A DNA stretch of 64,000 nucleotides from Octopus vulgaris (taxonomy: Eukaryota). Below, piece after piece: positions 4,041 through 46,966 of this stretch. Within the stretch, counting starts at the first letter, position 1. The number at the start of each line of letters is the position of its first letter. The translations under genes and the position numbers were made by a program. The stretch spans positions 46,500,001 to 46,564,000 of the forward strand of contig OX597822.1 of NCBI GenBank assembly GCA_951406725.2, written 5' to 3'. Under the pieces are notes generated by a model, which saw nothing but the letters and a program-made list of their open reading frames with translations, ran no database searches and was not told the DNA's origin.

Positions 4041-6768
4041 AGTGATGGGTAGGCACATTTTCATGACGGGTCTCTCTCTGCTAATCTCAGCTACAGAACC
4101 AGGTGAGCGTAAGATGCATGCCACTGACCAAACTTGGCTGTTTGCATTTACTGACCTGTTCATTCTTGTTTGGACTTGATAGCATTCCAGTTGTCTTCAC
4201 TGGCTGATGAACACTCCAATTTTTATTTCTCTCAGCTCTCTATGTGATGCATATGTGTGTGTGTGTGTGTGTGTGTGCTTGTGTGTATGCACAACAGTCT
4301 ACTTGCTGTGTGTGTGCACGCACATTTTACTTGCTATGGCAGTGAGACAGTATGTGTCATTTAATAAGTGTGTGTCTGTATGTGCAAGTATGAATTATTA
4401 AGAGTTTTTGTATATGCGTACTTTAACTTCCTCATAAGTTAAAAACTAACGTACGACACATTGTTATCAACATGGAGGAGATAATCTCCCCATTTCAGAA
4501 TATATCCTACATGGAAAGGAAGAAAATGTAGTCTAAAAATCAGACAGTTATCTCCATGTATGACCAAATATGTCCAACAAAGTTTGATATAGTCTCACTA
4601 TGTTATCATTATCAACATGTAGGACACCGTGTGACCTACATTAGATTGGTGTGTTCTGTAACACATTGGATGGTGAGAGTGAAATAAAGAATTTAAATAT
4701 CTGAGGTGAGTTATTGTTCATAAGATTATAATGTATTATGATTTATTATAATTTATTACAATTTATTATAATTTATTTACTTTGTCTTTAGAGATGGGAA
4801 ATTTTCAATATTTACAACTACACTACAGCCCAGGCAGGTTAATTTCCAATCCTCATCAAATATTTTATTCCTGGATGTTTTCACAGTAATAGAATGGATT
4901 TGAACTAGGATCCTTCATTTCTTAAGTAAAGTTTATAACATTCTTATTAACTAGACCAGTGTTTCTCAGACAAGGGTAAAGATTTAAAAGGAAACAAATT
5001 GCCATGTTTAATAAAATCAAAATGGTTTCCAACTTTTTATAAACTTGTTAATTACCAGAATTAGTATCATTATCATTTAACATCCGTTTTCCATGGATTG
5101 GATATAACAACAAACTAACTATGAATTGTAAGAACTGTACTATGGCTGCGTAGTAAAAAGCTTGCTTACCAACCACATGTTTCCGGGTTCAGTCCTACTG
5201 CATGGCACCTTGAGCAGGTGTCTTTGGCTATAGCCTTGGACTGACCAAAGCCTTGTTAGTGGATTTAATAGACAGAAACTGAAAGAAGCCTGTCATATAT
5301 ATCTATATATGTATATATATACATAGATATATGTGTGTGTGTGTTTGTTCCTCACTACTGCTTGGCAACCAGTGTTAGTGTTTTTACAGCCCCTTAACTT
5401 AGTGTTTCAGCAAAAGAGAGTGATATGATAAGTACCACACTTTCTTTACAAAAGAGAAGTACTGAAGTTCATTCTATTAAACTAAAACTTCTTCAGGTGG
5501 TGTCCCAGCATAGCCACAGTCTAAGGACTGAAACAAGTAAAAGATAAAAAATGTGAATTCTTCATATTACTTTAATTCAGATTCAAATTTCCTATCCCAC
5601 CTCCCTGTGGGGAGATAGTTACCTCCTTTTGTGTTTATGGCCATCTAGAGGGCACCACATATTTGAAACTATTTTTGTCTTTCATTAATAAAAAGTTGGC
5701 AGAATGACAAAAAATTCCACTAATATTTCTGTTTGCTTACAGTGGTGAGCTAGCAGAAACGTTAGCACGCCAGACGAAATGCTTAGTGATATTTCATCTG
5801 TCTTTATGTTCTGAGTTCAAATTCCACCAAGATCAACTTTGCCTTTCATCATTTTGGTGGGGGTCGATAGATTAAGTACCAGTTGTGTAGTGGGGGGTCA
5901 TTCTCAAAAATTTCAAGCCTTGTGCCTAGCGTAGAAAAGAATATTGAGGGTAGGGTATTTGTCAATTTGAGAACCACTGCACTGAACAGTTCATGTTTGG
6001 GACTGACCACATAAATATAGATGTTGAAAGATATGTAAATATTGCAAAATCCATCATCTCTAAAGATGAAATTAACCTTTAGCATGCTGAAGGCACATCA
6101 TGTCACCATATAAGTTGTCTCCCTTCTCAGTGCAACACAGTATACCGTCAGCTACAGGGGAGAAAACTCATACAGCAACATGATGCATCTAAGCATATAA
6201 AGGTTACATATTGGGTAAACTGTAATTGTATAAAGACTGTATTTTCATATTGTATATATTTATGGTAAGTCACCTCTGGTTGAAGATACCTGCTTTTTCT
6301 ACAGCCAGATGTCTATTCTTTTGCCAAACTTCACCTCTTTCCATGCAATGTAATATTTCTCCATTGTCAGATATGTTTTTCATGAAAGATCAGAAATGAA
6401 GGACACTGCATGATAATGGCATCCATTTACAACTATTCTCTTAGCTTCCATCTACCAAATCTACTCATAAGGCTTTGGCAGATATGAGCCATAGAGGAAA
6501 ACGCTTGCCCAAAGTTGAATTTGAACTCAGGACATTGAGAATCAGAAGAAACAAGGATGATATTATTGATATCATTCATATGAATGCAGCTCTGTTCAAC
6601 TCACTACTTCACCAGAAACAATTCAGGAAATGAATGTGAAATAAAAGAAAAAACAAGGAAAACACAATCGCACTAAAGATAGTGCTTCAGCATGGCCACA
6701 GCCTCTGGCTGAAACCAATAAAAGCAAAAGTCTGATTCATTTATACGAAAAGAATAAATATCTGTTGC

Positions 6769-6780
6769 TTTATTTTTATT
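6769..6780 (-). terminator. Tandem AATAAA polyadenylation signals of the alpha-tubulin gene
   Basis: tttatt twice on + strand, ~280 nt downstream of the tubulin stop codon. Confidence 0.5.
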
Positions 6781-7057
6781 CTTGTTTAAATTACACTTCA
6801 AATGGTTTTTGTGGAAAAAATATAACAACAGGAACACAAGCAAATAGGTGCAAATGTGTAGAATGAAAAATGTTACACTGATGTGAGAGACAAATGTTGA
6901 AAAGAGAGAGTGTATATTTCAGAAGCTACGTGTAAATACAATGTTGAAATTGTTCCTACTTTCACATTCAGTGAAATAAATGAAAATTGTTCCTGTTCTC
7001 ACATTCAGTGAGTGTAATGTCATCCGACAGTCTAGAAGTGACTCTGTTTTAATATGT

Positions 7058-8016
7058 TCAATATTCTGCCACTCCTTGTTCCTCTTCATCCACAAATACT
7101 GTGTCAGCACCAGCCTCCTTGTAGTCTTCTTCCAGTGCAGCCATATTTTCTCGTGTCTCAAGAAATTCATCTAATGTCATGCCTTCAGAAATATACCAAT
7201 GAACAAAAGCTTTTTTGCGAAACATTAAATCAAATTTGTAATCAAGACGTGCCCAGGCTTCACGAATTGCTGTTGTATTACTAAGCATGCAAACAGCTCG
7301 AATAGAATTCCCTATGTCACTACCAGGAACTGAAAATGGGGGTTGACTGTTGATGCCTATTTTGAATCCAGTCGGACACCAGTCAACAAAATGTACCTTG
7401 CTTGATCGCTTGATGTTTTGCAATGCATAATTAACCTTACTTGGGCAAACATCGCCTCTGTAGAGGAGGCAACATGCCATGTATTTACCAGATTGAGGTG
7501 AACAATTAACCATTTGATTGTGAGGTGCAAAACACTGGTTGGTTAAATGTTGAATGCTTACCACTGAGCGTAAAATATTCACGTCTGACATTAGTGGAGA
7601 GTAAGTGGCCAGGGGAAAGTGAATTCGAGGATAAGGTACCAGGTTGGTCTGAAATGCACTAAGGTTTACTTGAAGGGAACCTTCAAAACGTAGTGGGGTT
7701 GTAATTGAGCTGAGTACATGAGAAATGACCTGGTTCAGGTTTTTGTACATTGGACGTGAAACTTTAAGCTTGTTATGACAGATTTTATAAATAGCTTCAT
7801 TGTCAAGAAGGAAACTGCAGTCGGAATGGTCCATAGTGCAGTGTGTGGTGAGCAGTGAGTTGTATGGTTCCACCATGCTTGTCGATAAATGAGGTGACGG
7901 GTAAACAATGAAATTAATCTTTGATTTCTTTGGAAAGAGCTGACTAAGAGCTTGTGCTAGGATTGCTGTGAAACCAGAACCGGTACCGCCACCTAAACTG
8001 TGAGAAATAAGGAAAC
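7058..8016 (-). CDS. TUBA: Divergent alpha-tubulin, last coding exon (G134 to C-terminal ..EEEQGVAEY*)
   Basis: GGGTGSG signature, [38 protein letters not shown], terminal Tyr; acceptor tttcag at 8017-8022; phase 1 matches the previous exon (G|GT). Confidence 0.95.
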
Positions 8017-8875
8017 CTGAAATGACAGCAATGTATATTGTCACTAGTGACAGAAATGATGTTCTTTATAGAAATACTGACATTGGAACATTGGTATATT
8101 GTCATTGTACTTGTTGTTTAGCCCCAGGTCAGCCTTGATCAAGCAGGTTTAGGATCAAAGACATTCAAATCTTGACCATTACACTGATTTTTGCCTTCTT
8201 TTTTCAGATAGCATATTCAAGATTATATTATCCAATGTGTTGGTCTTCCTTTTAAGACAGTAGGGTGTATTTTGAGGGGAAATTTGGTTGCTATTTATAG
8301 CTGTTTGAGGGACCACATAGAAGCTCCTTTGCTGTTTCATTAATCTACAGCGGATACAGGAGAAGTTCACCTTAGTACTGCAAGTTATTGAAACATTCAG
8401 CAATTACAGAATACCTCCACTACTTCCAGCAGTGAACTGTACTTCTCTACCTGACATATTGACCACGGGCTGGAATGTTAAGAGAAGAGTGTCATTACGA
8501 TAGACACAGTACAATACAAGAGGCAGGTAAAACATCAAACAATTCTTTCTAAACAAACATTATCAACACTGGAGAAAGCAAACCAATGAGAGAGTCACTG
8601 TGTAGTCATTTGAGTTGCTGGATACAACAGCCAGTTCTTCCTCGGATCACACTGCACCCTACTGTCTTAGGGAGGGCACATTGGATAATGTTGTCCTGGA
8701 TATGTTATGCCTGAATAAAAGACAGGATGGTCATGGCAGGTACATATGGCTATCCTAGACTAAACAACAACAACTCAATATACTATATAAACTCTATATC
8801 ATATTTAAGATAAACTACATATATACCTGATATACATATACATACAGACATGTACACACACACACGCATATATAA

Positions 8876-14266: not shown

Positions 14267-14440
14267 CTTGTAACTGATCGCAGTCTTCAGCAAGTTTTTC
14301 TATTCTCTCAACAGCAACCTCTAACGCTTCTCGGCCAACCCCATAGTAGCCACGGGCAAAGTTATTGGCAGCATCTTCTTTCCCAGACAGAAAAGTGTTT
14401 GGATGAAAGAGGCTCTTGAATTTTCCGGAACGTACAACAT
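14267..14440 (-). CDS. TUBA: Divergent alpha-tubulin, internal exon (D76-Q133)
   Basis: DVVRSGKFKSLFHPNTFLSGKEDAANNFARGYY..CDQLQ; acceptor tttcag (14441-14446), donor gtatct (14266); both junctions phase 1. Confidence 0.95.
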
Positions 14441-17038: not shown

Positions 17039-17261
17039 CAATTACGGTTGGTTCAAGGTCAATAAACATAGCACGAGGAACAATTAAAGATTTCTCTGTT
17101 TCGTAAAATATTGAGTCAAGACGATTGTTTTTGTGCTCGTGAAAACAGTTACATTTTAGTCTGCCATCAGGCTCAACTCCATGTTCAAGACAATACAATT
17201 CCCAACAGGATTCAGCAAACTGAACGCCAGCTTGTCCAATATTGATGCTCACAATTTCTCC
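17039..17261 (-). CDS. TUBA: Divergent alpha-tubulin, exon encoding GEIVSINIGQAG...DLEPTVI
   Basis: GQAGVQ, CWELYCLEHG, VPRAMFIDLEPTVI; acceptor tttcag (17262-17267), donor gtatgt (17038); intron after the first codon(s) and at codon 76 phase 1 are classic alpha-tubulin positions. Confidence 0.95.
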
Positions 17262-17558: not shown

Positions 17559-20500
17559 CATCATCATCATCATCATCATTTAACGTCCGCTTTCCATGCT
17601 AGCATGGGTTGGACGGTTCAACTGGGGTCTGGGGAGCCCGAAGGCTGCACCAGGCCAGTCAGATCTGGCAGTGTTTCTACAGCTGGATGCCCTTCCTAAC
17701 GCCAACCACTCCGAGAGTGTAGTGGGTGATTTTATGTGCCACCGACACAGGTGCCAGACGAGGCTGGCGAACGGCCACGCTCGGATGGTGTTTTTATGTG
17801 CCACCGACACAGGTGCCAGACGAGGCTGGCGAACGGCCACGCTCGGATGGTGTTTTTATGTGCCACCGACACAGGTGCCAGACGAGGCTGACGAACGGCC
17901 ACGATCGGATGGTGTTTCTTACGTGCCCACAGCACGGAGGCCAGTCGATGAGGTACTGGCTACGGCCACGTTCGGATGGTTTTCTTGTGTGCCACCGGCA
18001 CTGGTACCACAATGATACAAATTCCATTGATGTTCATCTATTTTGATTTGATTTGATTTGATTTGATTTTCACTTGCCTCAACAGGTCTTCACAAGTGTC
18101 ACAAGAAGGAAGGAAGGTATGCACAGGTGAACTGACAACGTCCCAGGTAGGGGCCACGGGTTATGGCCTGACTAGTCTTGTCGGGTCTTCGGATGATGTT
18201 TTTATGTGTCTCCGACACAGGTGCCAGATGGATGGTGTTTGTTACGTGCCCACAGCACGGAGGCCAGTCGATGCGGTACTGGCTACGGCCACATTCGGAT
18301 GGTTTTCTTGTGTGCCACCGGCACTGGTACCACAAAGATACAAATTCCATTGATGTTCATCTATTTTGATTTGATTTGATTTGATTTGATCACTTGTCTC
18401 AACAGGTCTTCACAAGTGTCACAAGAAGGAAGGTATGCACAGGTGGACTGACTACGTCCCAAGTAGAGGCCACGGGTTATGGCCTGACTAGTCTTGCCGG
18501 GTCTTCGGATGGTGCTTTTATGTGCCACCGACACAGGTGCCAGATGAGGCTGGCGAACGGCCACGATCGGATGGTGTTTGTTATGTGCCCACAGCACAGA
18601 GGCCAGTCAATGCGGTACTGGCTACGGCCACATTCGGATAGTTATCTTGTGTGCCACCGGCCCTGGTACCACAAAGATACAAATTCCATTGATGTTCATC
18701 TATTTTGATTTGTTTTGATTTGATCACTTGCCTCAACAGGTCTTCACAAGTGTCACAAGAAGGAAGGTATGCACAGGCGGACTGACTACGTCCCAGGTAG
18801 GGGCCACGGGTTATGGCCTGACTAGTCTTGCCGGGTCTTCAGATGGTGTTTTTATGTGCCACCGACACAGGTGCCTGATGAGGCTGGCGAACGGACATGA
18901 TCGGATGGTGTTTGTTACGTGCCCACAGCACGGAGGCCAGTCGATGCGGTACTGGCTACGGCCACGTTCGGATTGTTTTCTTGTGTGCCACCGGCACTGG
19001 TACCATAAAGATACAAATTCCATTGATGTTCATCTATTTTATTTTGATTTTCACTTTCACTTGCCTCAAAAGGTCTTCACAAGTGTCACAAGAAGGAAGG
19101 TATGCACAGGTGGACTGACTACGTCCCAGGTTGGGGCCACGGATTATGGCCTGACTAGTCTTTCCGGGTCTTCGGATGGTGTTTTTATGTGCCACCGACA
19201 CAGGTGCCTAGTCTTGCCGGGTCTTCGGATGGTGTTTTTATGTGCTACCGACACAGGTGCCGGATGAGGCTGGCGAACGGCCACGATCGGATGGTGTTTG
19301 TTACGTGCCCACAGCACGGAGGCCAGTCGATGCAGTACTGGCTACGGCCACGTTCGGATGGTTTTCTTGTGTGCCAACGGCACTGGTACCACAAAGATAC
19401 AAATTCCATTGATATTCATCTATTTCGATTTGTTTTGATTTTTTGATTTTTTGATTTTTTTTTTTTTTTTTTTTTTTGATTTTCACTTGCCTCAACAGGT
19501 CTTCACAAGTGTCACAAGAAGGGAGGTATGCACAGGTGAACTGACTACGTCCCAGGTAGGGGCCACGGGTTATGGCCTGACTAGTCTTGCCGGGTCTTCG
19601 GATGGTGTCTTTATGTGCCACCGACACAGGTGCCAGATGAGGCTGGCGAACGGCCACGATCGGATGGTGTTTGCTATGTGCCCACAGCACGGAGGCCAGT
19701 CGATGCGGTACTGGCTACGGCCACGTTCGGATGGTTTTCTTGTGTGCCACCGGCACTGGTAACAAAGATACAAATTCCATTGATGATCATCTATTTTATT
19801 TTGATTTTCACTTTCACTTGCCTCAACAGGTCTTCACAAGTGTCACAAGAAGGAAGGTATGCACAGGTGGACTGACTACGTCCCAGGTAGGGGCCACGGG
19901 TTATGGCCTGACTACTCTTGCCGGGTCTTCTCACGCACAGCATACTTCCATAGGTCTCGGTCTCTAGTCATTTCCTTGGTGAGACCTAAAGTTCGAAGGT
20001 CGTGCTTCACCACCTCGTCCCAGGTTTTCCTGGGTCTACCTCTTCCACAGGTTCCCTCAACTGCTAGGGTGTAGCACTTTTGCACACAACTATCTACAGC
20101 CATTCTCGTCACATGACCATACCAGCGCAGCCGTCTCTCTTGCACACCACAATTGACGCTTCTTAGGTTCAACTTTTCTCTCAAGGTACTTACACTCTGA
20201 CGATTATGAACACTGACATTACACATCCATCGGAGCATACTGGCTTCATTTCTTGCAAGCTTACGCATATCCTCAGCAGTCACGGCCCATGTTTCACTAC
20301 CATGTAGCATGGCTGTATGTACACATGCATCATACAGTCTACCTTTTACTCTGAGCGAGAGGCCTTTTGTCACCAGCAGGGGTAAGAGCTCTCTAAACTT
20401 TGCCCAAGCTATTCTTACTCTAGCAGTTACACTTTCAGCACACCCACCCCCGCTACTGACTTGGTCTCCTAGGTAGCGGAAGCTATCAACTACTTCTAGT

Positions 20501-22890
20501 TTGTCTCCCTGGAACGTGGTAGAAGTTGGTCTCTGCACATTTCCAGTGTTTATTGCTCCTGAGCATCTGCCACAGACAAAAACTATTTTCCTAGTTAGCC
20601 TTCCTTTGACATTGCTGCACCTCTTATGTGTCCATAGCTTACACTTGGTGCACCTTATAGAGTTTCTACCTACACCTTTTTTACAGATCGAGCAGGGCCA
20701 TCTACCTGAAGTCGTTTGTGATTGGTCCACCTTCCTACTTATTAGGACTTTGGTTTTGGCTAGGTTGATTCTAAGGCCCTTCGATTCTAATCCTTGTTTC
20801 CACACCTGAAACTTCTCCTCCAGTTCTGATAGTGACTCAGCAATTAGAGCAAGGTCGTCAGCATAGAGGAGCTCCCAGGGGCATCCTGTCTTGAATTCCT
20901 CCGTTATTGCCTGGAGGACTATGATAAATAGGAGGGGACTGAGGACTGAACCTTGGTGGACCCCAACCTCTACCCGGAATTCTTCACTGTACTCGTTGCC
21001 AACCCTCACCTTACTAGCAGCGTCTCTGTACATGGCTTGCACAGCTCTCACTAACCATTCATCTATCCCTAGTTTCCTCATTGACCACCAGATAAGGGAT
21101 CGGGGGACCCTGTCAAAGGCTTTCTCCAAGTCAACAAAAGCCAGGTACAAGGGCTTGTCTTTGGCTAGGTATTTCTCCTGCAGCTGTCTTACCAGGAATA
21201 TAGCATCAGTAGTACTTTTCCCTGGCATGAACCCAAACTGCATATCATCTAAGCTAACACTCTCTCTAATTAGTTGGGCTATAACCCTCTCCGTAACCTT
21301 CATTACCTGATCCAGCAGCTTGATGCCTCTGTAGTTATTTGTATCTAGGGCGTCACCTTTACCTTTGTAGCAGTTGACTATTATGCTGCTACACCAGTCA
21401 TTGGGTATGACTCCCTCGTGTATCACCTGGTTAACTATACGGGTGACTAAGCTATAGCCGACACCACCAGATATTTTGAGCATCTCTGCAGTAATTCCTG
21501 ATGGGCCTGGGGCTTTCCCTGTTTTCATGCTTCTAATTGCCTTATCTACTAAGGAACTGTTAACTCGGATTGCTGGTCCCTCTGTTGGGTCGACATTCGG
21601 CAGACTCTCTTTATCCCATTCATTTTCTTCATTCAGCAACCTTTCATAGTGGCGTCTCCAAGCCTCTCTCTTTGCATCCTCATTTAGCGCAAGTGAACCG
21701 TCATCCTTGCGAACACACTTCTCTCCTACCACGTCACGGTTCTCTCTCACACACTGTCTTGCAACACGAAATACCTTAAGTCTTTCATCCTCACGGCTCA
21801 GGACATTGGCAAATTTTTCCTTATCTGCCTCCCCTCTGGCTAGATAGACCTGTCTCCTGGCTTCCCTTCTGGCAGTCTGATACACTTCCCTGCTACCACC
21901 GTTCTTCCAGGCCTTCCAAGCCTGTTTCTTTTGTCTAATAGCCCTGTCAACAATATTGTTCCACCACCACGTTATTTTGGGTCTTAAGGGGACTTTGCAC
22001 CAGCCACAGATCTGGTCAGCGGCTTTCAGCAGGTTGTCCCTCAGAAGCGTCCAGTTGTCTTCTACCCCATGCGTAGCTATACTCCCTTCCATTTCGTCTA
22101 AGGCTTCAAATAACATATCTCTAAATCTCTGTCCATTCGCAGGGTCTTTAAGCTTCCAGACCCTTCTTCTCCATGTTGGTCGTCTTCTAGTCGCCCTCTT
22201 AGTCCTGATCCTAAAGTCACTAACTACCAGTCTATGTTGTGGGGTGCATTCTTCGCCTGGGAAGGTTTTGGCATTTATAAGCAGCCATCTTTCCCTTTTT
22301 CTGGCAAGGATGTAGTCGATTTGGCTAGTATGCCGGCCCGATCAGTAGGTGACCAGGTGGCTTGTCGGTTTCCTGAAGTTAGTGTTGCAAACCATAAGAC
22401 TATTCGCATCGCAGAACTCCAGCAGCCTGGTTCCCTCCTCGTTGCGGGAACCATAACCGTAGCCTCCATGCACGCCATGGAAGCCCCCAGCACATCGTCC
22501 AACATGCCCATTGAAGTCACCAGCCACAAAGAGAAGGTCCCTGTCGTTCGTCAATGATGTGGTCTGCAGTAGGGTGTCGTAGAAACAGTCTTTCTGTCCA
22601 TCAGGTAGCCCTGGCTGAGGGGCATAGGCCGATATAATAGTTGCTAAACTATGATGGAGCACTAATCTAATCTTAATTATTCTGTCACATACTCTGACTA
22701 CCTCGATTACCTTATCTACCCATTTTTCGGCGATAAGCATGCCCAAACCCCCGACCCCATCAGTATTCCCAGCCCAGAAAATCTTGTACCTCTGTCCTTT
22801 GCCTGTGAGGAACCTAGCAGAACCTCCTCTCCACCTCACTTCTTGAATGCAGCATATATCCACACACCTCCGTTCAAGCAATTCAACGAT
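17559..22890 (-). mobile_element. RTE-clade LINE copy 1: near full ORF (APE endonuclease + RT + PHD-type finger), one premature stop, tandemly expanded 3' UTR, (GAT)n tail
   Basis: APE motifs IQEVRW, SAYAPQ, GDFNGH, QIDY; RT motifs NYRGIKL, QFGF, FVDLEKAFD, GVHQGSVLSP, YADD; TGA at 22342-22344 is in frame with ORF 19912-22116; 5'-truncated; inserted in (TA)n in tubulin intron 1. Confidence 0.95.
17905..19930 (-). repeat. About six tandem ~320-430 bp units of the RTE stop-codon/3' UTR region
   Basis: ttg(c/t)ctcaa(c/a)aggtcttcacaagtgtcacaagaagg recurs at ~18075, 18394, 18728, 19061, 19487 and 19818. Confidence 0.9.
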
Positions 22891-23537
22891 GAATATATAT
22901 ATGAATATATATATGTGTATTTGTATGTTTATGCAATTGAAACAATTGTTGGATTTTTAAAGTGTCAACTGAAATAAAGATATGATTTTCATCATACATA
23001 TCGATTGTTATATATATGTATATATATATATAAACAATATCAAACACACATACACAATGTATACATTTTGCTAGTTCATGTCATGGGTAGGCTGCACTGA
23101 TAGGCATAAAAGAATATATTCTCATTAATTTGCCTGGTGCACCAGAATGTAGAAATACTTGAGTTGGTGTCTGAAGGTGTAGTAAACCAACAGTGTATGA
23201 GAAACCTTGGTCCCTCATTCACTGTGGGTTTACTACATGGTAAGGGTGGTAATTAATATATAAAACCTGCCACTCTACTGAGTCGGATATCTTGCACTTT
23301 GCTTGTCTCTGAGATTCTTGGTAGTGCTAGTGAGAGTTGTCGTGGAATTGTGCAATCTGCACTCAACTTAGAACACTTGCATGGACTGAGACTCCTGTCA
23401 GTGATTGTCATGCTCATCTAACGAGCAGACAGCCATCATGTATTTTATGTGTGTGTGTGTGTGTGTGTGTGTATCATCATCATCGTTTAACATCCACCTT
23501 CCATACTGGCATGGGTAGGAACACACGAATATGTGTA

Positions 23538-25674
23538 TCATCATCATCATCATCATCATCGTTTAACGTCCGCTTTCCGCGCTAGCACGGGTTGGACGGT
23601 TTGACCGGGTCTGGGAAGCCAGGGGCCGCTCCAGGCTCCAGTCTGAATCTGGCAGAGTTTCTACGGCTGGATGCCCTTCCTAACGCCAACCACTCCGTGA
23701 GTGGATTGGGTGCTTTTTACGTGCCACCTGCACAGGGGCCGGAGGGTCCGGCATCGTCACGATCGGTTCGAGCATTTTAACGTGTCAGCGGCACGGGGGC
23801 AACGAGGTCCGGGGTACTTTGGGGATCGGGGTACTTTGGGGATCCAGGGTACTTTGGGGATCCGGGGTACTTAGAATGGGTAGGGGGTATGTGGAATTGC
23901 TGCAGAAAGCAGCCCGGGTCTTTGTAGTCACAGCATATCTCCAGAGATCTCGGTCCTTCGCCATTGCCTCAGTGAGGCCCAATGCTCTGAGGTCATGCTT
24001 GACCACCTCATCCCATGTCTTCCTGGGTCTACCTCTCCCCCTGATACCTTCAACTGTTTGGGAGTGGCACTTCTTCACACATCTCTCTTCATCCATCCGC
24101 AGCACATGACCATACCATCGCAAGCGTCGCTCTTGCACACCACATCTGATGCTTCTTATATCCAGCATTTCTCTCAGGATACTTACACTCTGTTTTGCAT
24201 GCACACTGACACTACACATCCAGCGGATCATGCTAGCTTCATTTCTTTCAAGTCTACGCATGTCTTCTGCAGTCACAGCCCATGTTTCATTACCGTGAAG
24301 CATGGCAGTTCGCACACATGCATCATACAATCTACCTTTTGCTCTGAGGGAGAGGCCTTTTGTTGCCAGTAGGGGTAGGAGCTTTCTGAACTTTGCCCAG
24401 GCTATTCGTATTCTAGTGGTGATACTCTCTGTACATCCACCTCCGCTACTAACTTGGTCTCCCAGGTAGCGGAAACTATCAACTACTTCTAGTTTCTCTC
24501 CCTGGAGTGTGATGGAATCTGTTTTCTGAGTGTCTGTTGTGTCTATTGTCCCTGTGCATCTGCCGCACATGAAAGCTATCTTATCTGTTAATTTCCCTTT
24601 AATGTTGCTGCACCTCTTATGTGTCCATAACTTACATTGGGTGCATCTTATGGAGTTTCTACCTGTACCTTTCCTACAGGTTGAGCAGGGCCACCTACCC
24701 GAGGGGATGTGTGTTGAGTACCTCTTGCTGCTTACTAATACTTTGGTCTTTGCTACATTTATTCTAAGGCCCTTTGATTCCAACCCTTGCTTCCACACCC
24801 GAAATTTCTCTTCTAGTTCCGGTAGTGATTCTGCTATGAGAGCTAGGTCATCGGCATAGAGGAGCTCCCAGGGGCATCCCGTTTTGAATTCCTCTGTTAT
24901 TGCCTGAAGGACTATGATGAATAAAAGGGGACTGAGGGCTGAGCCCTGGTGCACACCTACTTCTACTCGGAATTCTTCACTATATTCGTTGCCAATCCTA
25001 ACCTTGCTAACAGCCTCTCTGTATAGAGCCTGTACAGCCCTTATTAGCCATTCTTCAATCTCCAGTTTCCGCATCGACCACCAGATAAGGGAACGGGGAA
25101 CCCTGTCAAAGGCTTTCTCCAAGTCTACAAAAGCTATGTAGAGGGGTTTATCTTTAGCTAGGTACTTCTCCTGCAGTTGTCGGACCAGGAATATAGCATC
25201 AGTGGTGCTTCTACCTGGTACAAAACCGAACTGCATTTCATCTAAACAAATTCTCTCCCTAATGAGATTGGTTATGACCTTCTCTGAGACCTTCATCACC
25301 TGGTCCAACAGTTTGATACCTCTGTAGTTATTTCTATCTAGAGCATCACCCTTACCCTTGTAGCAGTTGACTATGGTACTGCTGCACCAGTCATTGGGTA
25401 TGGCTCCATTGTGAACTACCTGGTTTACAATGCGGGTGACTATGGCATGGCCCACATAGCCAGCTGTTTTAAGCATCTCAGCAGTGATTCCTGATAGGCC
25501 AGGGGCTTTGCCTGGTTTCATATCCTTAATTGCCTTATCTACAAGGGAGCTGTCTATTCGGGTAGCTGGTCCCTCTACTGGGTCAACATTTGGCAGGCTC
25601 TCCTCCTCCCATTCATTCTCCTCATTCAGCAGTCTTTCATAATGGCTTCTCCAAGCCTCTTTCTTTTCACTAGT

Positions 25675-25710
<36 letters not shown>

Positions 25711-26199
25711 TGCCCCATCATCCATGCGGACACATTTCTCTCCTATAACATCGCTATTTTCTCTGACACACTGTCTGGCAATCCGAAATACTTCAGCTCT
25801 TTGATCCTCGCGACGCTGGACATTGGCAAACTTCTTCTTTTCTGCTACATCTTTGGCAATGTATACCTGCCGCCCAGCCTCCCTTTTGGCTATCTGGTAC
25901 AGTTCCCTGCTGCCCCCATCCTTCCAGGCTTTCCAGGCCCGTCTCTTTTCACAGATGGCTTTATCTACTGCACTATTCCACCACCACGTAATTCTAGGTC
26001 TGGAAGGGACTTTGCACCATCCACAAACTTGGTCTGTGGCACTCAACAAGCTGTCCCGTAGGAATTCCCAGCTACCTTCTATGTCTGACGTCTGAAGCTC
26101 CTCTTCCCTCTCATCAAATTTCTTGATGAGTATGTCCCTAAATTTCTGACCATGCGAAGGGTTCTTTAGCCTCCAAATCCTTCTTTTCTGGATTGGTTT
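23538..26199 (-). mobile_element. RTE-clade LINE copy 2 (different subfamily), 5'-truncated, open RT + PHD-type finger frame
   Basis: ORF 23785-26049 with the same RT motifs; (GAT)n tail at 23538-23560; three ~18-19 bp repeats ggggtactttggggatc at 23811-23872. Confidence 0.95.
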
Positions 26200-26222
26200 A
26201 TGTAAATATATTTATAGACATG

Positions 26223-29480: not shown

Positions 29481-29770
29481 CAAGAGTTAATAAATATCGA
29501 AACTGCTAATTAATTTATTTCGAAACTTCTCTTCGAAACTCAACGAAAAAATCAAACTTTTTATTTAAGTTTGTTCTGTCTGCGAAATCATTGTTATTCA
29601 TTTCAGAAATGGCTGGGTTGTCTGTCAGACTGACAGACTGTATGACATCACAAAGATGACAGCATTTTATGATGACAATGCTGTTTTGTTGTTTCCCTGC
29701 CAACACTTCCTCCATGAGGAAATCTCATCTGATGATGTCATTTGTCATTCTTATGACATCATCAGATAAC
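29480..29770 (-). promoter_or_regulatory. Candidate 5' UTR/promoter of the alpha-tubulin with three TGACATCA (CRE-like) motifs
   Basis: tgacatca or tgatgtca at 29643, 29733 and 29754; palindrome tctgtcag-a-ctgacaga at 29621-29637; unique sequence just upstream of the candidate ATG. Confidence 0.35.
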
Positions 29771-31704
29771 GTTTAGTGGGAAATGACATTATAAGCATTC
29801 AGAGTATCAAGCTCATCTTGCTTCACACATTTTGACTGTGGTCATGCTGGGGCACCACCTTGAAGGTATTAGTCAAACAAATTAACCCCAGGACATTTTT
29901 CTTTTTAAACCTGGTATTTATTCTATTAGTCTCTTTTTCTGAACTGCTAAGTAAACACACCAACAGTGATTTTCAAGTGGTGGGGTGGGGAGAAAACACA
30001 TACACAAAGATACACACATAGATATATATGTATATACTATGGGCCTCTTTCAGTTTCTGTCTACCAAACCCACTGACAAGGCTTTGGTCAGCTCGAAGCT
30101 ATAGTAGATCCCAGAATCATGTGATTGGGAAATAAGCTTCTTACCACACAACCACGCCTGCACCTATATTTTTTATTTTTTTTAATAAATATTTAAAATT
30201 TCTTTTTATTATTTTATATTTTATATTTAAATATTTTATATTTAAAATTTAAAATTTTAAAAATATTTTATATTTAAAATTTAAAATTTATTTTTTTATA
30301 GATATATTTTTAGGTGAGTGAAGAGTGTGACCTAGTGGATCGGGTTTTGCACTCATGATTGCTAGATGGTTGGTTCGATTCCCAGATTGGGTGGTGCATT
30401 GTGTTTTTGACCAAAACATTTCGTTTTACATTACTCTGTAGGCGGGAGATTAGCAGAATCAGTGCATTGGCAGAAATGATTTATGGTATATCTTCTGGCT
30501 CCCCATATTCTGAGTTCAAATCCCACCTGTCTGAAGAATGCAAAGGAAACCACTCCAATATTCATCCCAAGTCTAGTCATGGGAGCTGAAGTTCTAATAA
30601 TCAACTTAATGGCAGCAGGGTGCGGTGGGGATGGCATGGCCCCTACCTGGAGAAGATTCACATGAACAGGTTCTGCCCAAGGGCAGACCACTGCTAGATA
30701 GGTGCAGTTGTGGCTGCGTCGTCAGAAGTATGATTCTCAACCACATGGTTTTGTTTTCACTCCCATTGCATTCAACTTTGGGTAAGTATCTTCAGTTATA
30801 ATCCCCAAGCTGACCAAAACCTTGTGAGTGGACTTGGTAGATAGAAACTGAAAAAAGCCCATCGTATGTGTGTGAATAAAAATATACATACATACATCGT
30901 TTTATTTAACGTCTGCTTTCCATGCTAGCATGGGTTGGATGATTTGACTAAGGACTGGTGAACCAGATGGCTGCACCAGGCTCCAATCTGATCTGGCAGA
31001 GTTTCTACAGCTGGATGCCATTCCTAACGCCAACCACTCCAAGAGTGTAGTGGGTGCTTTTACATGCTACCAGCATGAGGGCCAGTCAGGTGGTACTGGC
31101 AATGGCCACGCTCAAATGGTGTTTATTACATACCACCTGCACAGGAGCCAGTCCAGCAGCACTGGCAACGACCTCGCTCGAATGTACATACACATTATTA
31201 TCATTATTATTGTCATTGCAAGACAGTGAGCTGGCAGAATCGTTAGCACACTGGACGAAATGCTTAGCGGTATTTCGCCCGTCGTTATGTTCTGAGTTCA
31301 AATTCCACCAACTTTGCCTTTCATCCTTTTGGGGTTGATAAATTAAGTACCAGTGAAACACTGAGTCAGCTTTGTCTGTCTTTCTTTTGGGGTAGATAAA
31401 TTAAGTACCAGTTGAACACTGGCGTTGATGTAATCAACTACCCCCTTCCCCAAATTTTAAACCTTATGCCTATAGTAGAAAGGGTTATTATTATTATTAT
31501 TTAAAACTGTGATTTGGTCCCACACAGCTTTAAACATTTGTTTATGTTATAGCAGAGAAGCTGATCTCAGTCTGTCTGTCTGTCTGTCACAACATCTTTT
31601 GTGAGGGGAGGAACCAAATGGGGAGTTAAGAGGAGGAGTGGGAGCAGAAAAGTTGTTGAAAGAGAAATTCAGTGAGAGAGAAAGAGAGAGAGTGAAAGAT
31701 AGAA

Positions 31705-32269: not shown

Positions 32270-33070
32270 GACCTGAACAATAAGGTATCTTATGGACTCA
32301 CCTGAATCATAGGTCTGTTATGTAAGGACTGCCTGGCCCCGTGCCGGTGACACGTAAAAGCACCATCCGTTCATGGCCGTTTGCCAGCTCTGTCTGGCAC
32401 CTGTGCGGGTGGCACGTAAAAAGCACCCACTACACTCACGGAGTGGTTGGCGTTAGGAAGGGCATCCAGCCGTAGAAACACTGCCAGATCTGACTGGGCC
32501 TGATGAAGCCTTCCAGCTTCACAGACCCCAGTTGAACCGTCCAACCCATGCTAGCATGGAGAACGGATGCTAAATGATGATGATGATGATGATGATTACC
32601 TGAATCAGATGTTGGTTTAGTAAGGATTCACCCGAATCATAGGTTTATTAAGGACTCACCTGAATCATAAAACTTATGTAAGGACTCACTTGAATCATAA
32701 GTCTCATGCAAGGACTCAACTGAATATATCTGTTAAGTAATGACTCACACGAATCATAGGTCTCTTGTTACATCAGGACTCACCTGAATCATAAATCTTA
32801 AGTAATGACTCTCTTGAATCATAGGTCTATAACATCAAGACTCACCTGAGTCATAAATCTTAAGCAAGGATACAACTGAATAATAGATCTATTAAGTAAG
32901 GACTCACCTGAATCATAAGTTTATTAAGTAAGGTCTCATCTGAAACATAAGTCTTAAGCAAGGATTCAACTGAATCATATATCAGTTAAGTAAGAACTCA
33001 CTTGAATCATAAGTCTTAAGCAAGGACTCACATGAATCACAAAGCAGTTCTGTAAGGGTTCACCCAAATC
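32270..33070. repeat. ~30-bp minisatellite (aaggactcacctgaatcata + variable ~10 nt) interrupted by an RTE 3' tail (32333-32596, +)
   Basis: More than 15 degenerate units visible by eye on both sides of the RTE-tail insertion. Confidence 0.85.
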
Positions 33071-45449: not shown

Positions 45450-46845
45450 CGGGAAGCTTTATGAAAATAGACAAAAGACGAAGGCAGGTGGAAAACAAAC
45501 ACACAATTGTATTAGTATGGCGCTCAGGAAATATAAATAAAACAAGTCTTTAACGTTTCGAGCCTACGCTCTTCAACAGAAAGATACACAGAGAAAAAAA
45601 ACACAGAAAGAAGGAGAGAAAAAAATGCGTGCAGTAACTAACGAATCAACATGGCGATCTGATTTCGGCCAGAAGTCAAAGATCAAACATGAGACGTGAG
45701 AGCGAAATTAGGGGAGATAATAGGGTTGAATGACCTACTCCAACATAAGGGTGTGTGTATGTGTGTGTGTGTATGAGAGAGTATTAGTGCGTATGAGAGG
45801 TCTGGACGTGTGTATGTATAGGGTTGGTGTATGTATTAGTTGGTGTATGTATTAGTATGGCACATCATATATGATGTGATGTGTAAAGTCCTGTGATGTA
45901 GTGTGGAGAGAGGAGAAGAGGGGGAAGGGGAGGGGGAGAAGAGGTGGAGTAGAGGAGGGGTGGGGAGGAGGGGGAGAAGGAATGGGGGAGGATGGGAGGA
46001 GGAAGGAGGAAAGAGGGAGGGGGAGGAGGAAGGAAGGGGGAGGGGGAGAGAGAAGGGGAGTGAGGGAGCAGAGGGAAGGGGAAGAGGGAAGGAGGGAGGG
46101 AGAAAGAGGGAAGAAGGGAAGGGGAGTAGGGGTGAAAGGATGAAGGACTGAAGAGAAGTAGGGGTCGGGGGGAAAAGTAGGTGAGGAGGGGGGAGAGGGG
46201 GGTTAGATGAGGAGGGGGAGAGTTGAGACCAAATGGCGTATAAGAGCGAAGAGAGAAGATTAATTCCTGTTCACGGCGCAAACGGGAATCTGGATGGCCT
46301 CTGTGTAAGGACAAACCGAACACAGACAGGTGTTGCAAGGAGTGACCAGTGGAGCGGAAATGGCGTGAGACCGGTGTGTCGTTCGCAAGGTGGATGTCAC
46401 GAAGGTGTTCCGCGAACCGGTCAGCCAAGCGGCGTCCCGTTTGTCCGATGTACAAGGAATGGCAGAGAGAGCAAGAGACGCAATAGATAATATTGCTGGA
46501 GGTGCAGGTGAAGGAGTTGATGATGCGATAGGGTCGATGATGGGTGCTAGTGAGGAGGGTGGTGTTGGAGAGGTAAGGGCAAGTGCGGCAACGTGGGCGG
46601 GAGCAGGGGAACGAGCCGGGTTGGGAGGTAGGGTCAGGGAAGGAGCTATGGACCAAAAGGTCTCGAAGGTTGTGGGCTCGTTTGAAAGAGGGGAGGGGTC
46701 GGTTAGGGAAGAGGTGTGAAGTGGACGGGTCGGACTGGAGATGACGGAAAGCTCGAAGAATGGTGCGTTGGAGAGGTAGGGTCGTGGGGTGGTAAGTGAG
46801 GGGAAAAGGGAGGCGGGAGACTACAGGGCGGGTTCGGGGAGAGAT
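45450..46845 (-). mobile_element. Penelope-like element 3' fragment with GIY-YIG endonuclease, nested in the (TA)n of a SINE A copy
   Basis: PCSRPRCRTC..FTCTSSNIIYCVSC..C..LYIGQTGRRLADRFAEH..PVSRHF..H..RE..LI..L...P.GLN; SINE head at 45276-45449 and tail at 47085-47295. Confidence 0.9.
45547..45584 (-). ncRNA. Minimal type I hammerhead ribozyme-like motif (Penelope), core variant
   Basis: TCTTT-CTGTTGA-A-GAGC gtag GCTC-GAAAC-GTT-AAAGA: stem I 5 bp, stem II 4 bp, palindromic AACGTT stem III; core CUGUUGA instead of CUGANGA. Confidence 0.6.
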
Positions 46846-46966
46846 ATATATATATATATAGAAAATTCAGGGTGAGTACTTGATAATTGTAAGCACCTGT
46901 ATATCCCGTTTGGTGGTGTAGGTGGTGGAGTAAATTAATCAAAATAAAAACATGATGCCAAGGATT

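Follow-up and report, generated by a model that had tools for sequence, protein, structure and literature searches.

The dynamic instability of microtubules rests on alpha-tubulin residue E254, and the locus described here raises the question of whether an animal can keep an intact alpha-tubulin gene without that residue and, if so, what the protein would do. The gene lies on the minus strand of the window, by which we mean the whole stretch of 64,000 nucleotides of the Octopus vulgaris genome that was analyzed (assembly GCA_951406725.2, contig OX597822.1, positions 46,500,001 to 46,564,000) and whose own numbering is used throughout. A preliminary description had reported an alpha-tubulin frame in which E254 is Ala, D251 is Asn, and N249 is Gln, had read these as three concerted changes, and had proposed an isotype evolved not to trigger GTP hydrolysis. 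The present analysis finds that the gene is real and conserved and that its mechanism can be predicted; the changes are more extensive than first described, as R2, K326, H283, and E414/E415 have been lost as well.

Gene structure and assignment to the alpha-tubulins

Three minus-strand exons (17261–17039, 14440–14267, and 8016–7058), all with GT-AG boundaries, join into 1356 nt that encode 451 amino acids with a single terminal stop, and by inspection the translation equals O. vulgaris CAI9727751.1 (P0121) from residue 14 of the latter onward. Exon 2 (17039–17261), placed by its AG/GT edges and its translation, reads GEIV...PTVI and begins with GGA, a Gly at the position of canonical R2; exon 3 (14267–14440) contains the T3 loop GKEDAANN and ends at a phase-1 intron at G134; and exon 4 (7058–8016) carries the GGGTGSG signature, T7/H8, the M-loop, H11-H12, and the acidic tail ending in AEY before the stop. 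The coding exon 1 is likely 29480–29475, where ATG ACC is followed by a gtaagt donor to give MT-GEIV; among three upstream ATG-ACN-GT candidates only this one has the GTAAGT donor, and it agrees with the N-termini (MTGEIV) of the RefSeq orthologues P0002 and P0122. The predicted N-terminus, MTGEI, is one residue longer than MREC/MREI and has Gly in place of R2. We rejected the GenBank first exon of O. vulgaris at 32822–32784, minus strand (MIQESHYLRFMIQ), which sits inside a decayed tandem repeat (approximately 32280–33060) rich in ATGATTCAGGTGAG, conflicts with both RefSeq orthologues, and is probably a mis-annotation.

A 3′ UTR was placed at 6769–7057 (minus strand), with candidate AATAAA signals read from the sequence at 6780–6769; contig X17 (see below) matches it down to 6852 and contig X1 down to 6821. 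A candidate promoter with clustered CRE-like sites is predicted at 29550–29800 (minus strand), where three of the window’s eight TGAYRTCA sites occur (29643, 29733, and 29754) together with its densest TGACA/TGTCA cluster (nine per 250 bp vs. a mean of 0.78). The likely intron 1 also holds two LINE-like reverse transcriptase open frames of approximately 810 amino acids each (19912–22956 and 23785–26211, minus strand), the first adjoined by an endonuclease part, and these frames adjoin a tandem array of ~300-bp units at 17700–20000. Further upstream, an inositol monophosphatase-family exon (PF00459; 47236–47757, minus strand), presumably INPP1-like, provides a synteny marker on the same strand, and an open frame at 45865–46866 (minus strand) bears a resemblance to what we take to be the GIY-YIG end of a Penelope-like element.

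The protein is an alpha-tubulin by descent. It matches PF00091 (Tubulin, 198 bits) and PF03953 (Tubulin_C, 148 bits), both above cut-off, it is 58–61% identical to the alpha loci of the genome vs. 35–37% to the beta loci, and 60 of the 60 PDB matches listed are alpha chains. Three hallmarks of the class are absent, namely E254, R2 with its MREI context, and the EEGE patch, and the protein is thus not a canonical hydrolysis-triggering alpha, the loss of hydrolysis being a prediction. AlphaFold2, run on a 42-sequence alignment, returned a mean pLDDT of 57 and a pTM of 0.49; these values probably stem from the shallow input, and the model, for which there was no canonical control, was set aside.

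Verification of the codons

In the T7 loop/H8 segment (7655–7672, within the stretch 7693–7643 of the minus strand), the codons read CAA for Q249 (7672–7670), AAC for N251 (7666–7664), and GCA for A254 (7657–7655). In HMMER alignments to PDB chains the Ala falls on alpha E254, and the best match, 7sj9_A, likewise has Ala there. Contigs or reads of four runs (X15, X17, X1, and X24) were compared over 6720–8120 (1401 nt). Contig X15, which is DNA-type in that it includes the intron, agrees with the window over the full stretch except at 7396 and may be the source of the window’s own DNA, its run type not being on record. Contig X17 covers 6852–8018 at a depth of 477, and its 27 further letters match the 3′ end of exon 3, which demonstrates splicing of exon 3 to exon 4. 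Contig X1, from an organism approximately 97% alike (organism A), stops at the exon edge with a depth of 584, vs. 28 for the contig that covers the intron. Neither X17 nor X1 differs from the window at 7655–7672, and the same codons are present in X15, X17, and X1, where GAA or GAC was not seen; the three codons are therefore genuine, and the uninterrupted, spliced frame with its GTP-site motifs stands as it had been described.

Purifying selection is evident from exon 4, which differs from X1 by ten synonymous changes over 209 sites and by eight or nine non-synonymous changes over 745, the count of nine including one unlisted difference (omega 0.22–0.25; Fisher p = 0.003 with nine). Neither of the marks of a pseudogene that we looked for, a broken frame or a dN/dS near 1, was found, and intact orthologues are present in four named species besides O. 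vulgaris. Cephalopods recode heavily by RNA editing, and the AAC at 251 could be A-to-I edited to GAC (Asp); broken alpha copies also exist elsewhere in the genome (L019, L023, and L025). We nevertheless regard an assembly error, a pseudogene, or a rescue by editing as very improbable, given the identical codons in three contigs, the intact orthologues with an omega of ~0.25, and the lack of a majority edit at 7655–7672. Restoration of E254 by this route was rejected outright, as A-to-I editing cannot turn GCA into GAA or GAG.

Orthologues and age of the loss

A search of the genome gave 36 matches, of which 30 were fetched and six weak ones left out. Every one of the 23 other alpha loci fetched keeps N249, D251, and E254, which are also 100% conserved in 70 background alpha-tubulins, so Q249/N251/A254 cannot be put down to chance. 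Elsewhere in the genome, L016–L022 and L025 (G000:C11, 23.2–26.7 Mb) form a young, multi-copy, divergent alpha clade that keeps E254 and by inspection carries P325S, T223R, and R229P; L019 and L025 appear frameshifted, and L023 (G000:C1, 48.91 Mb) matches an alpha-tubulin but has either two internal stops or split exons and is possibly a broken copy.

At 249–254, Octopus sinensis, Octopus bimaculoides, and one Logan protein read QVNLSA, as does O. vulgaris, while Argonauta hians reads QVNFHT and Sepia pharaonis with its cluster RTDL(T/A)S. Position 254 is thus Ala, Thr, or Ser and position 251 Asn, Asn, or Asp in Octopus, Argonauta, and Sepia, respectively, and the idea of a concerted triad does not hold across the clade, since Sepia keeps D251 alongside R249 and S254 and Argonauta has T254. 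R2G is shared with Argonauta, the N-terminus being MTGEI in Octopus and GEI in Argonauta with canonical MREC/MREI and its R2 in neither; the mis-modelled Sepia N-terminus was left out of this comparison.

The orthologues formed one clade with an SH-aLRT of 100 in two trees, in the order (Sepia,(Argonauta,Octopus)), both trees being quick IQ-TREE runs without bootstrap. The clade was not drawn to other E254-less proteins, and it nested among animal alpha-tubulins in the second tree, which had no beta outgroup. Its members have in common 13 identical derived residues, all at positions where conservation among the 70 background alphas is 95% or more, and the Logan open reading frames of the Sepia cluster enter intron-like sequence at G134, which implies that they share the intron at that residue; 0 of the 22 other alpha loci printed have it. 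Long-branch attraction was rejected as the cause of the clade, because other long branches stayed out of it and the shared residues and intron back orthology. An intact, single-copy alpha-tubulin gene is therefore common to octopus, argonaut, and cuttlefish, and the single clade, the 13 residues, and the shared intron make it likely that E254 was lost once, before the octopod-cuttlefish split (~270 My ago), with D251N following later in octopods. No orthologue beyond Octopus, Argonauta, and the Sepia cluster was met among the best 120–150 matches listed by homologue searches, some of them capped at 8000 candidates, or in a search of 50% representatives; these lists are swamped by canonical tubulins and carry no weight on absence in Nautilus, squid, or other molluscs; a search of the ESM Atlas gave generic alpha clusters only.

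Remodelling beyond the loop

The protein of Octopus shares 58% identity with a canonical alpha, 40% of its residues depart from the consensus, and changes are found at 25 of 195 near-invariant sites (those with 99% conservation or more), among them R2G, K326S (7439–7441, minus strand), H283R in the M-loop (7568–7570, minus strand), and E414T, E415L, and G416D in the H12 motor patch (7169–7177, minus strand). Thirteen near-invariant sites are changed in all three lineages (E155, R156, V235, S241, N249, E254, H283, K304, K326, E414, E415, G416, and A421), and several replacements, including K326S, H283R, G410S, and D424N, are fixed identically across the clade. The catalytic set R2, N249, D251, and E254 is changed at four of four sites, as compared with 25 of 195 among all near-invariant sites (p = 0.0002), a value that is partly post hoc, three of the four sites having been so chosen. 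Octopod proteins have no acid between 246 and 260. In simulations by QM/MM, the salt bridge linking alpha R2 with beta E69 positions E254 (PMC10319017).

The H12 EEGE patch is replaced by TLDE, ILEE, or TMDQ across the three lineages, leaving TL, IL, or TM at 414–415. The yeast counterparts of E414 and E415, numbered E415 and E416 in that species, are reported to be needed for activation of the dynein ATPase (PMC4298687) and, as cited in the same paper, of the kinesin ATPase; G416D and V409I are among the variants listed for human tubulinopathies (PMC10707541). Of 245 search matches and 116 representatives in which these three positions could all be aligned, only 13 sequences have no acid at any of 254, 414, and 415; all 13 belong to the cephalopod clade, and no protein outside it combines these losses. 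Of the 22 sites in the published dynein footprint, 8, 7, or 12 are changed depending on the lineage, in octopods not above the whole-protein rate.

In the M-loop (272–288), 13 of 17 positions differ from the consensus in Octopus, as do 11 of 20 in the lateral pocket and 13 of 34 on the minus-end face, the last equal to the whole-protein rate; the contact lists for the pocket and the face are provisional. The N-site contacts with GTP, also from a provisional list, are unchanged at 24 of 26 positions in Octopus and 19 of 26 in Argonauta (changes in the latter including N101S and Y224L), and GTP binding is predicted; the features scored were Q11, D69, E71, D98, N101, GGGTG, T179, E183, N206, Y224, and N228. 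The H11-H11′ dimer face is kept (provisional list), as are residues 257–262, 346–352, K394, L397, M398, K401, F404, H406, and W407 in the three lineages. So is the acidic C-terminal tail with its terminal Tyr, which ends in AEY, EEY, KEY, or DEY and has five to seven acids in the last 12 residues.

Expression and candidate beta partner

The spliced or exon-bounded contigs at depths of 477 (X17) and 584 (X1) suggest restricted, high expression, although neither run is recorded as RNA and the depth of a contig is a poor guide to expression. The raw RNA-seq of X24 (four runs, 1934 million letters, ~6% read) gave 179 reads, all of them partial matches with loose ends of paralogue (canonical) type, and zero depth over 7660–7941, so that in these samples expression of the gene seems absent or very low. 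A run search returned no RNA run on record that holds the gene.

A candidate partner is the intronless, divergent beta-tubulin at L024:1105–2394 (plus strand; G000:C2 near 139.62 Mb), a putative protein of 429 amino acids that has no acidic tail and is conserved in two further species, O. sinensis and O. bimaculoides; a perfect CRE (TGACGTCA) lies 181 bp upstream. Differences fall at 110 of the 429 sites, plus-end-face residues 71–72, 177, 208–209, and 218–223 among them, and the protein carries T143S/S145G and D177E.

Fast-evolving tubulin isotypes are often testicular, and a link of CRE and CREM to spermatids is known from mammals, CRE sites being also common in housekeeping promoters. With the CRE-like sites of the candidate promoter and the microtubule sheath around O. 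vulgaris spermatid nuclei, this leads us to a guess, which we favor slightly, that the variant serves male germ cells (the spermatid perinuclear microtubule sheath, for instance) and that the tail-less beta is the partner. The sheath has been described in spermatids and testicular sperm (PMC11753710), but a KIFC1-like kinesin is reported to be present on the manchette in octopus (PMC3004946), and this speaks against a sheath that is wholly motor-inert. The gene was not identified in the accessible parts of an O. sinensis gonad paper with its supplement of GO tables (PMC11202624), of an O. maya testis paper with its six supplements (PMC6341066), or of PMC6522055, and term searches of the accessible text of PMC9048481, PMC11321004, and PMC4202323 gave no mention of it. 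No support was obtained for any of the tissues first suggested (sperm, cilia, or neurons).

Discussion

Our main reading, to which we give a probability of about 0.5, is that the gene encodes a hydrolysis-dead, motor-inert isotype of the stable microtubules of a restricted tissue. The variant alpha would dimerise with beta-tubulin and be incorporated into microtubules but would not set off GTP hydrolysis, and the resulting polymers would be long-lived and motor-resistant in one specialised cell type. If the protein polymerises, the beta beneath a 254 without acid would very probably keep its GTP, and kinesin and dynein ATPases would be poorly activated without E414/E415. That it still forms dimers and protofilaments, probably mosaic with ordinary alphas, and suppresses catastrophe seems rather likely, polymerisation being expected because the dimer and longitudinal surfaces and the Tyr tail are retained; the mosaic lattice would be long-lived and motor-poor. 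Engineered E254A blocks hydrolysis and gives hyperstable microtubules, as had been stated at the outset (PMC7018511); E254Q and E254N also block hydrolysis (PMC11893814), and polymers of all three mutants are stable (PMC7018511, PMC11893814). The likeness to a hydrolysis-blocked mutant holds for the loss of E254 itself, but this loss belongs to a much broader set of changes (affecting 40% of residues, and 25 of 195 sites that are near-invariant), so the cephalopod protein is not equivalent to a single engineered mutant. Toxicity in dividing cells would demand tight restriction of expression, which fits the present-or-absent pattern among the runs examined.

A normal lattice is not guaranteed, since the M-loop is rewritten and the lateral pocket differs at 11 of 20 positions, and this bears on a role outside the lattice, which we judge about half as probable as the main reading. 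The protein would then dimerise with beta while its altered lateral surfaces prevent normal tubes, and it would serve to cap or terminate plus ends, to sequester beta-tubulin, or to build another filament or sheet, with E254 and the motor patch decayed through disuse. Near-invariant sites are changed in the catalytic set, the M-loop, H3/H4 (R123E, E155Q, R156), and the H12 surfaces while the N-site and the dimer face are kept, and a similarly divergent tail-less beta exists in which the plus-end face and M-loop are also changed, all of which would suit such a role. However, the alpha-type minus-face segments 257–262 and 346–352 are unchanged in three lineages, and the acidic tail and terminal Tyr persist, as would be expected of a subunit that docks on beta in a polymer.

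Relaxed constraint, a little less probable again, would make the protein a fast-evolving isotype of microtubules that never disassemble, in which E254 loss is tolerated and GTP retention is a side effect with no function. The 58% identity to a canonical alpha is in keeping with this, as are the variation at 254 (A/T/S) and 249 (Q/R) and the loss of D251 in octopods only; position 254 is not acidic in 21 of 140 unnamed, divergent proteins of alpha type, which indicates that the acid is often lost with divergence. Yet the near-invariant changes concentrate on catalytic and motor residues (four of four vs. 25 of 195 for the catalytic set), K326S, H283R, G410S, and D424N are fixed identically across the clade, and neutrality is unlikely wherever the protein is co-expressed with dynamic microtubules, since yeast does not survive the E254A change (as cited in PMC7018511). 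The retention of D251 in Sepia tells against the main reading, as does the drift of 254 among small residues, which fits simple relaxation. There is a most ambitious form of the main reading, in which a coleoid alpha silenced for GTPase, kinesin, and dynein activation would form, with a co-evolved tail-less beta, an encoded permanent GTP-lattice in a motor-free microtubule and hence the first animal GTP-locked polymer by design; this form we consider doubtful.

The retention of an E254-less isotype since the octopod-cuttlefish split suggests that microtubule stability can be encoded in tubulin itself rather than through stabilising proteins. The gene offers a natural reagent for the long-standing question of whether stretches of GTP-lattice function in vivo, and motors may be unable to run on the polymer, which would be a kind of tubulin code that the literature searched does not describe.

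Comparison with known systems

Natural loss of E254 is recurrent, given coccidian alpha3-tubulin and the unnamed proteins mentioned above. Among 150 unnamed representatives, 140 are alpha-like and cover the loop, with 254 being Glu in 106, Asp in 13, and another residue in 21; these 21 are ~40–55% identical to canonical alpha, with some alignments shaky, and those tested in a tree fell outside the cephalopod clade. P0316, P0318, P0365, P0374, and P0393, all of them divergent and alpha-like and having Val or Ala in place of E254, form a supported clade (SH-aLRT 98) that is another independent natural loss. The non-cephalopod matches P0142, P0145, and P0234, also without an acid at 254, were set aside, two of them looking like mis-predicted models. 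Our search of open-access papers, bioRxiv supplements aside, found no published report of this gene or of E254 loss in an animal, and only the apicomplexan precedent for divergent E254-variant isotypes.

That precedent, the closest in nature, qualifies the novelty of an alpha without E254, which is real in cephalopods but had been reported for coccidian alpha3-tubulin (Toxoplasma TGME49_231400 and homologues; Eimeria ETH2_0609600), described from sequence only as lacking D251/E254 and proposed for non-dynamic microtubules (PMC10056924). Its N-terminus has a one-residue insertion (MPREI, or MPGEV in Eimeria), to be compared with MTGEI in the cephalopod protein. Alpha3 is a protist protein with a very long C-terminal tail (~40 residues), and the Toxoplasma protein keeps Glu at 253, whereas the cephalopod tail is of normal length and Tyr-ending, octopods have no acid at 246–260, and E414/E415 have been lost in addition. 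The difference in tail length and the nesting of the clade with animal alphas set the cephalopod protein apart from alpha3, and we infer that its loss was independent, coccidian sequences having been left out of the trees.

Engineered human alpha E254A, E254N, and E254Q (PMC7018511, PMC8764682, PMC11893814) have the same catalytic residue removed, with Ala also in Octopus, and the variant is predicted to work like E254A; these mutants are single substitutions in a wild-type protein, whereas the cephalopod protein is ~42% divergent, with M-loop, R2, K326, and motor patch altered. With canonical animal alphas (the 23 genome loci and the TUBA1A-like P0247) it shares the Pfam Tubulin and Tubulin_C domains, GGGTGSG, the N-site residues, the S9-S10 insert, introns near codons 1 and 76, and the terminal Tyr. 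It departs from them in that all keep N249/D251/E254, none of the 22 loci printed has the G134 intron, and E414/E415 are 100% conserved in the 70-sequence background. Loss of E254 was thus already known from coccidian alpha3, and what appears to be new, as judged from sequence, is an animal case of that loss together with loss of the motor patch.
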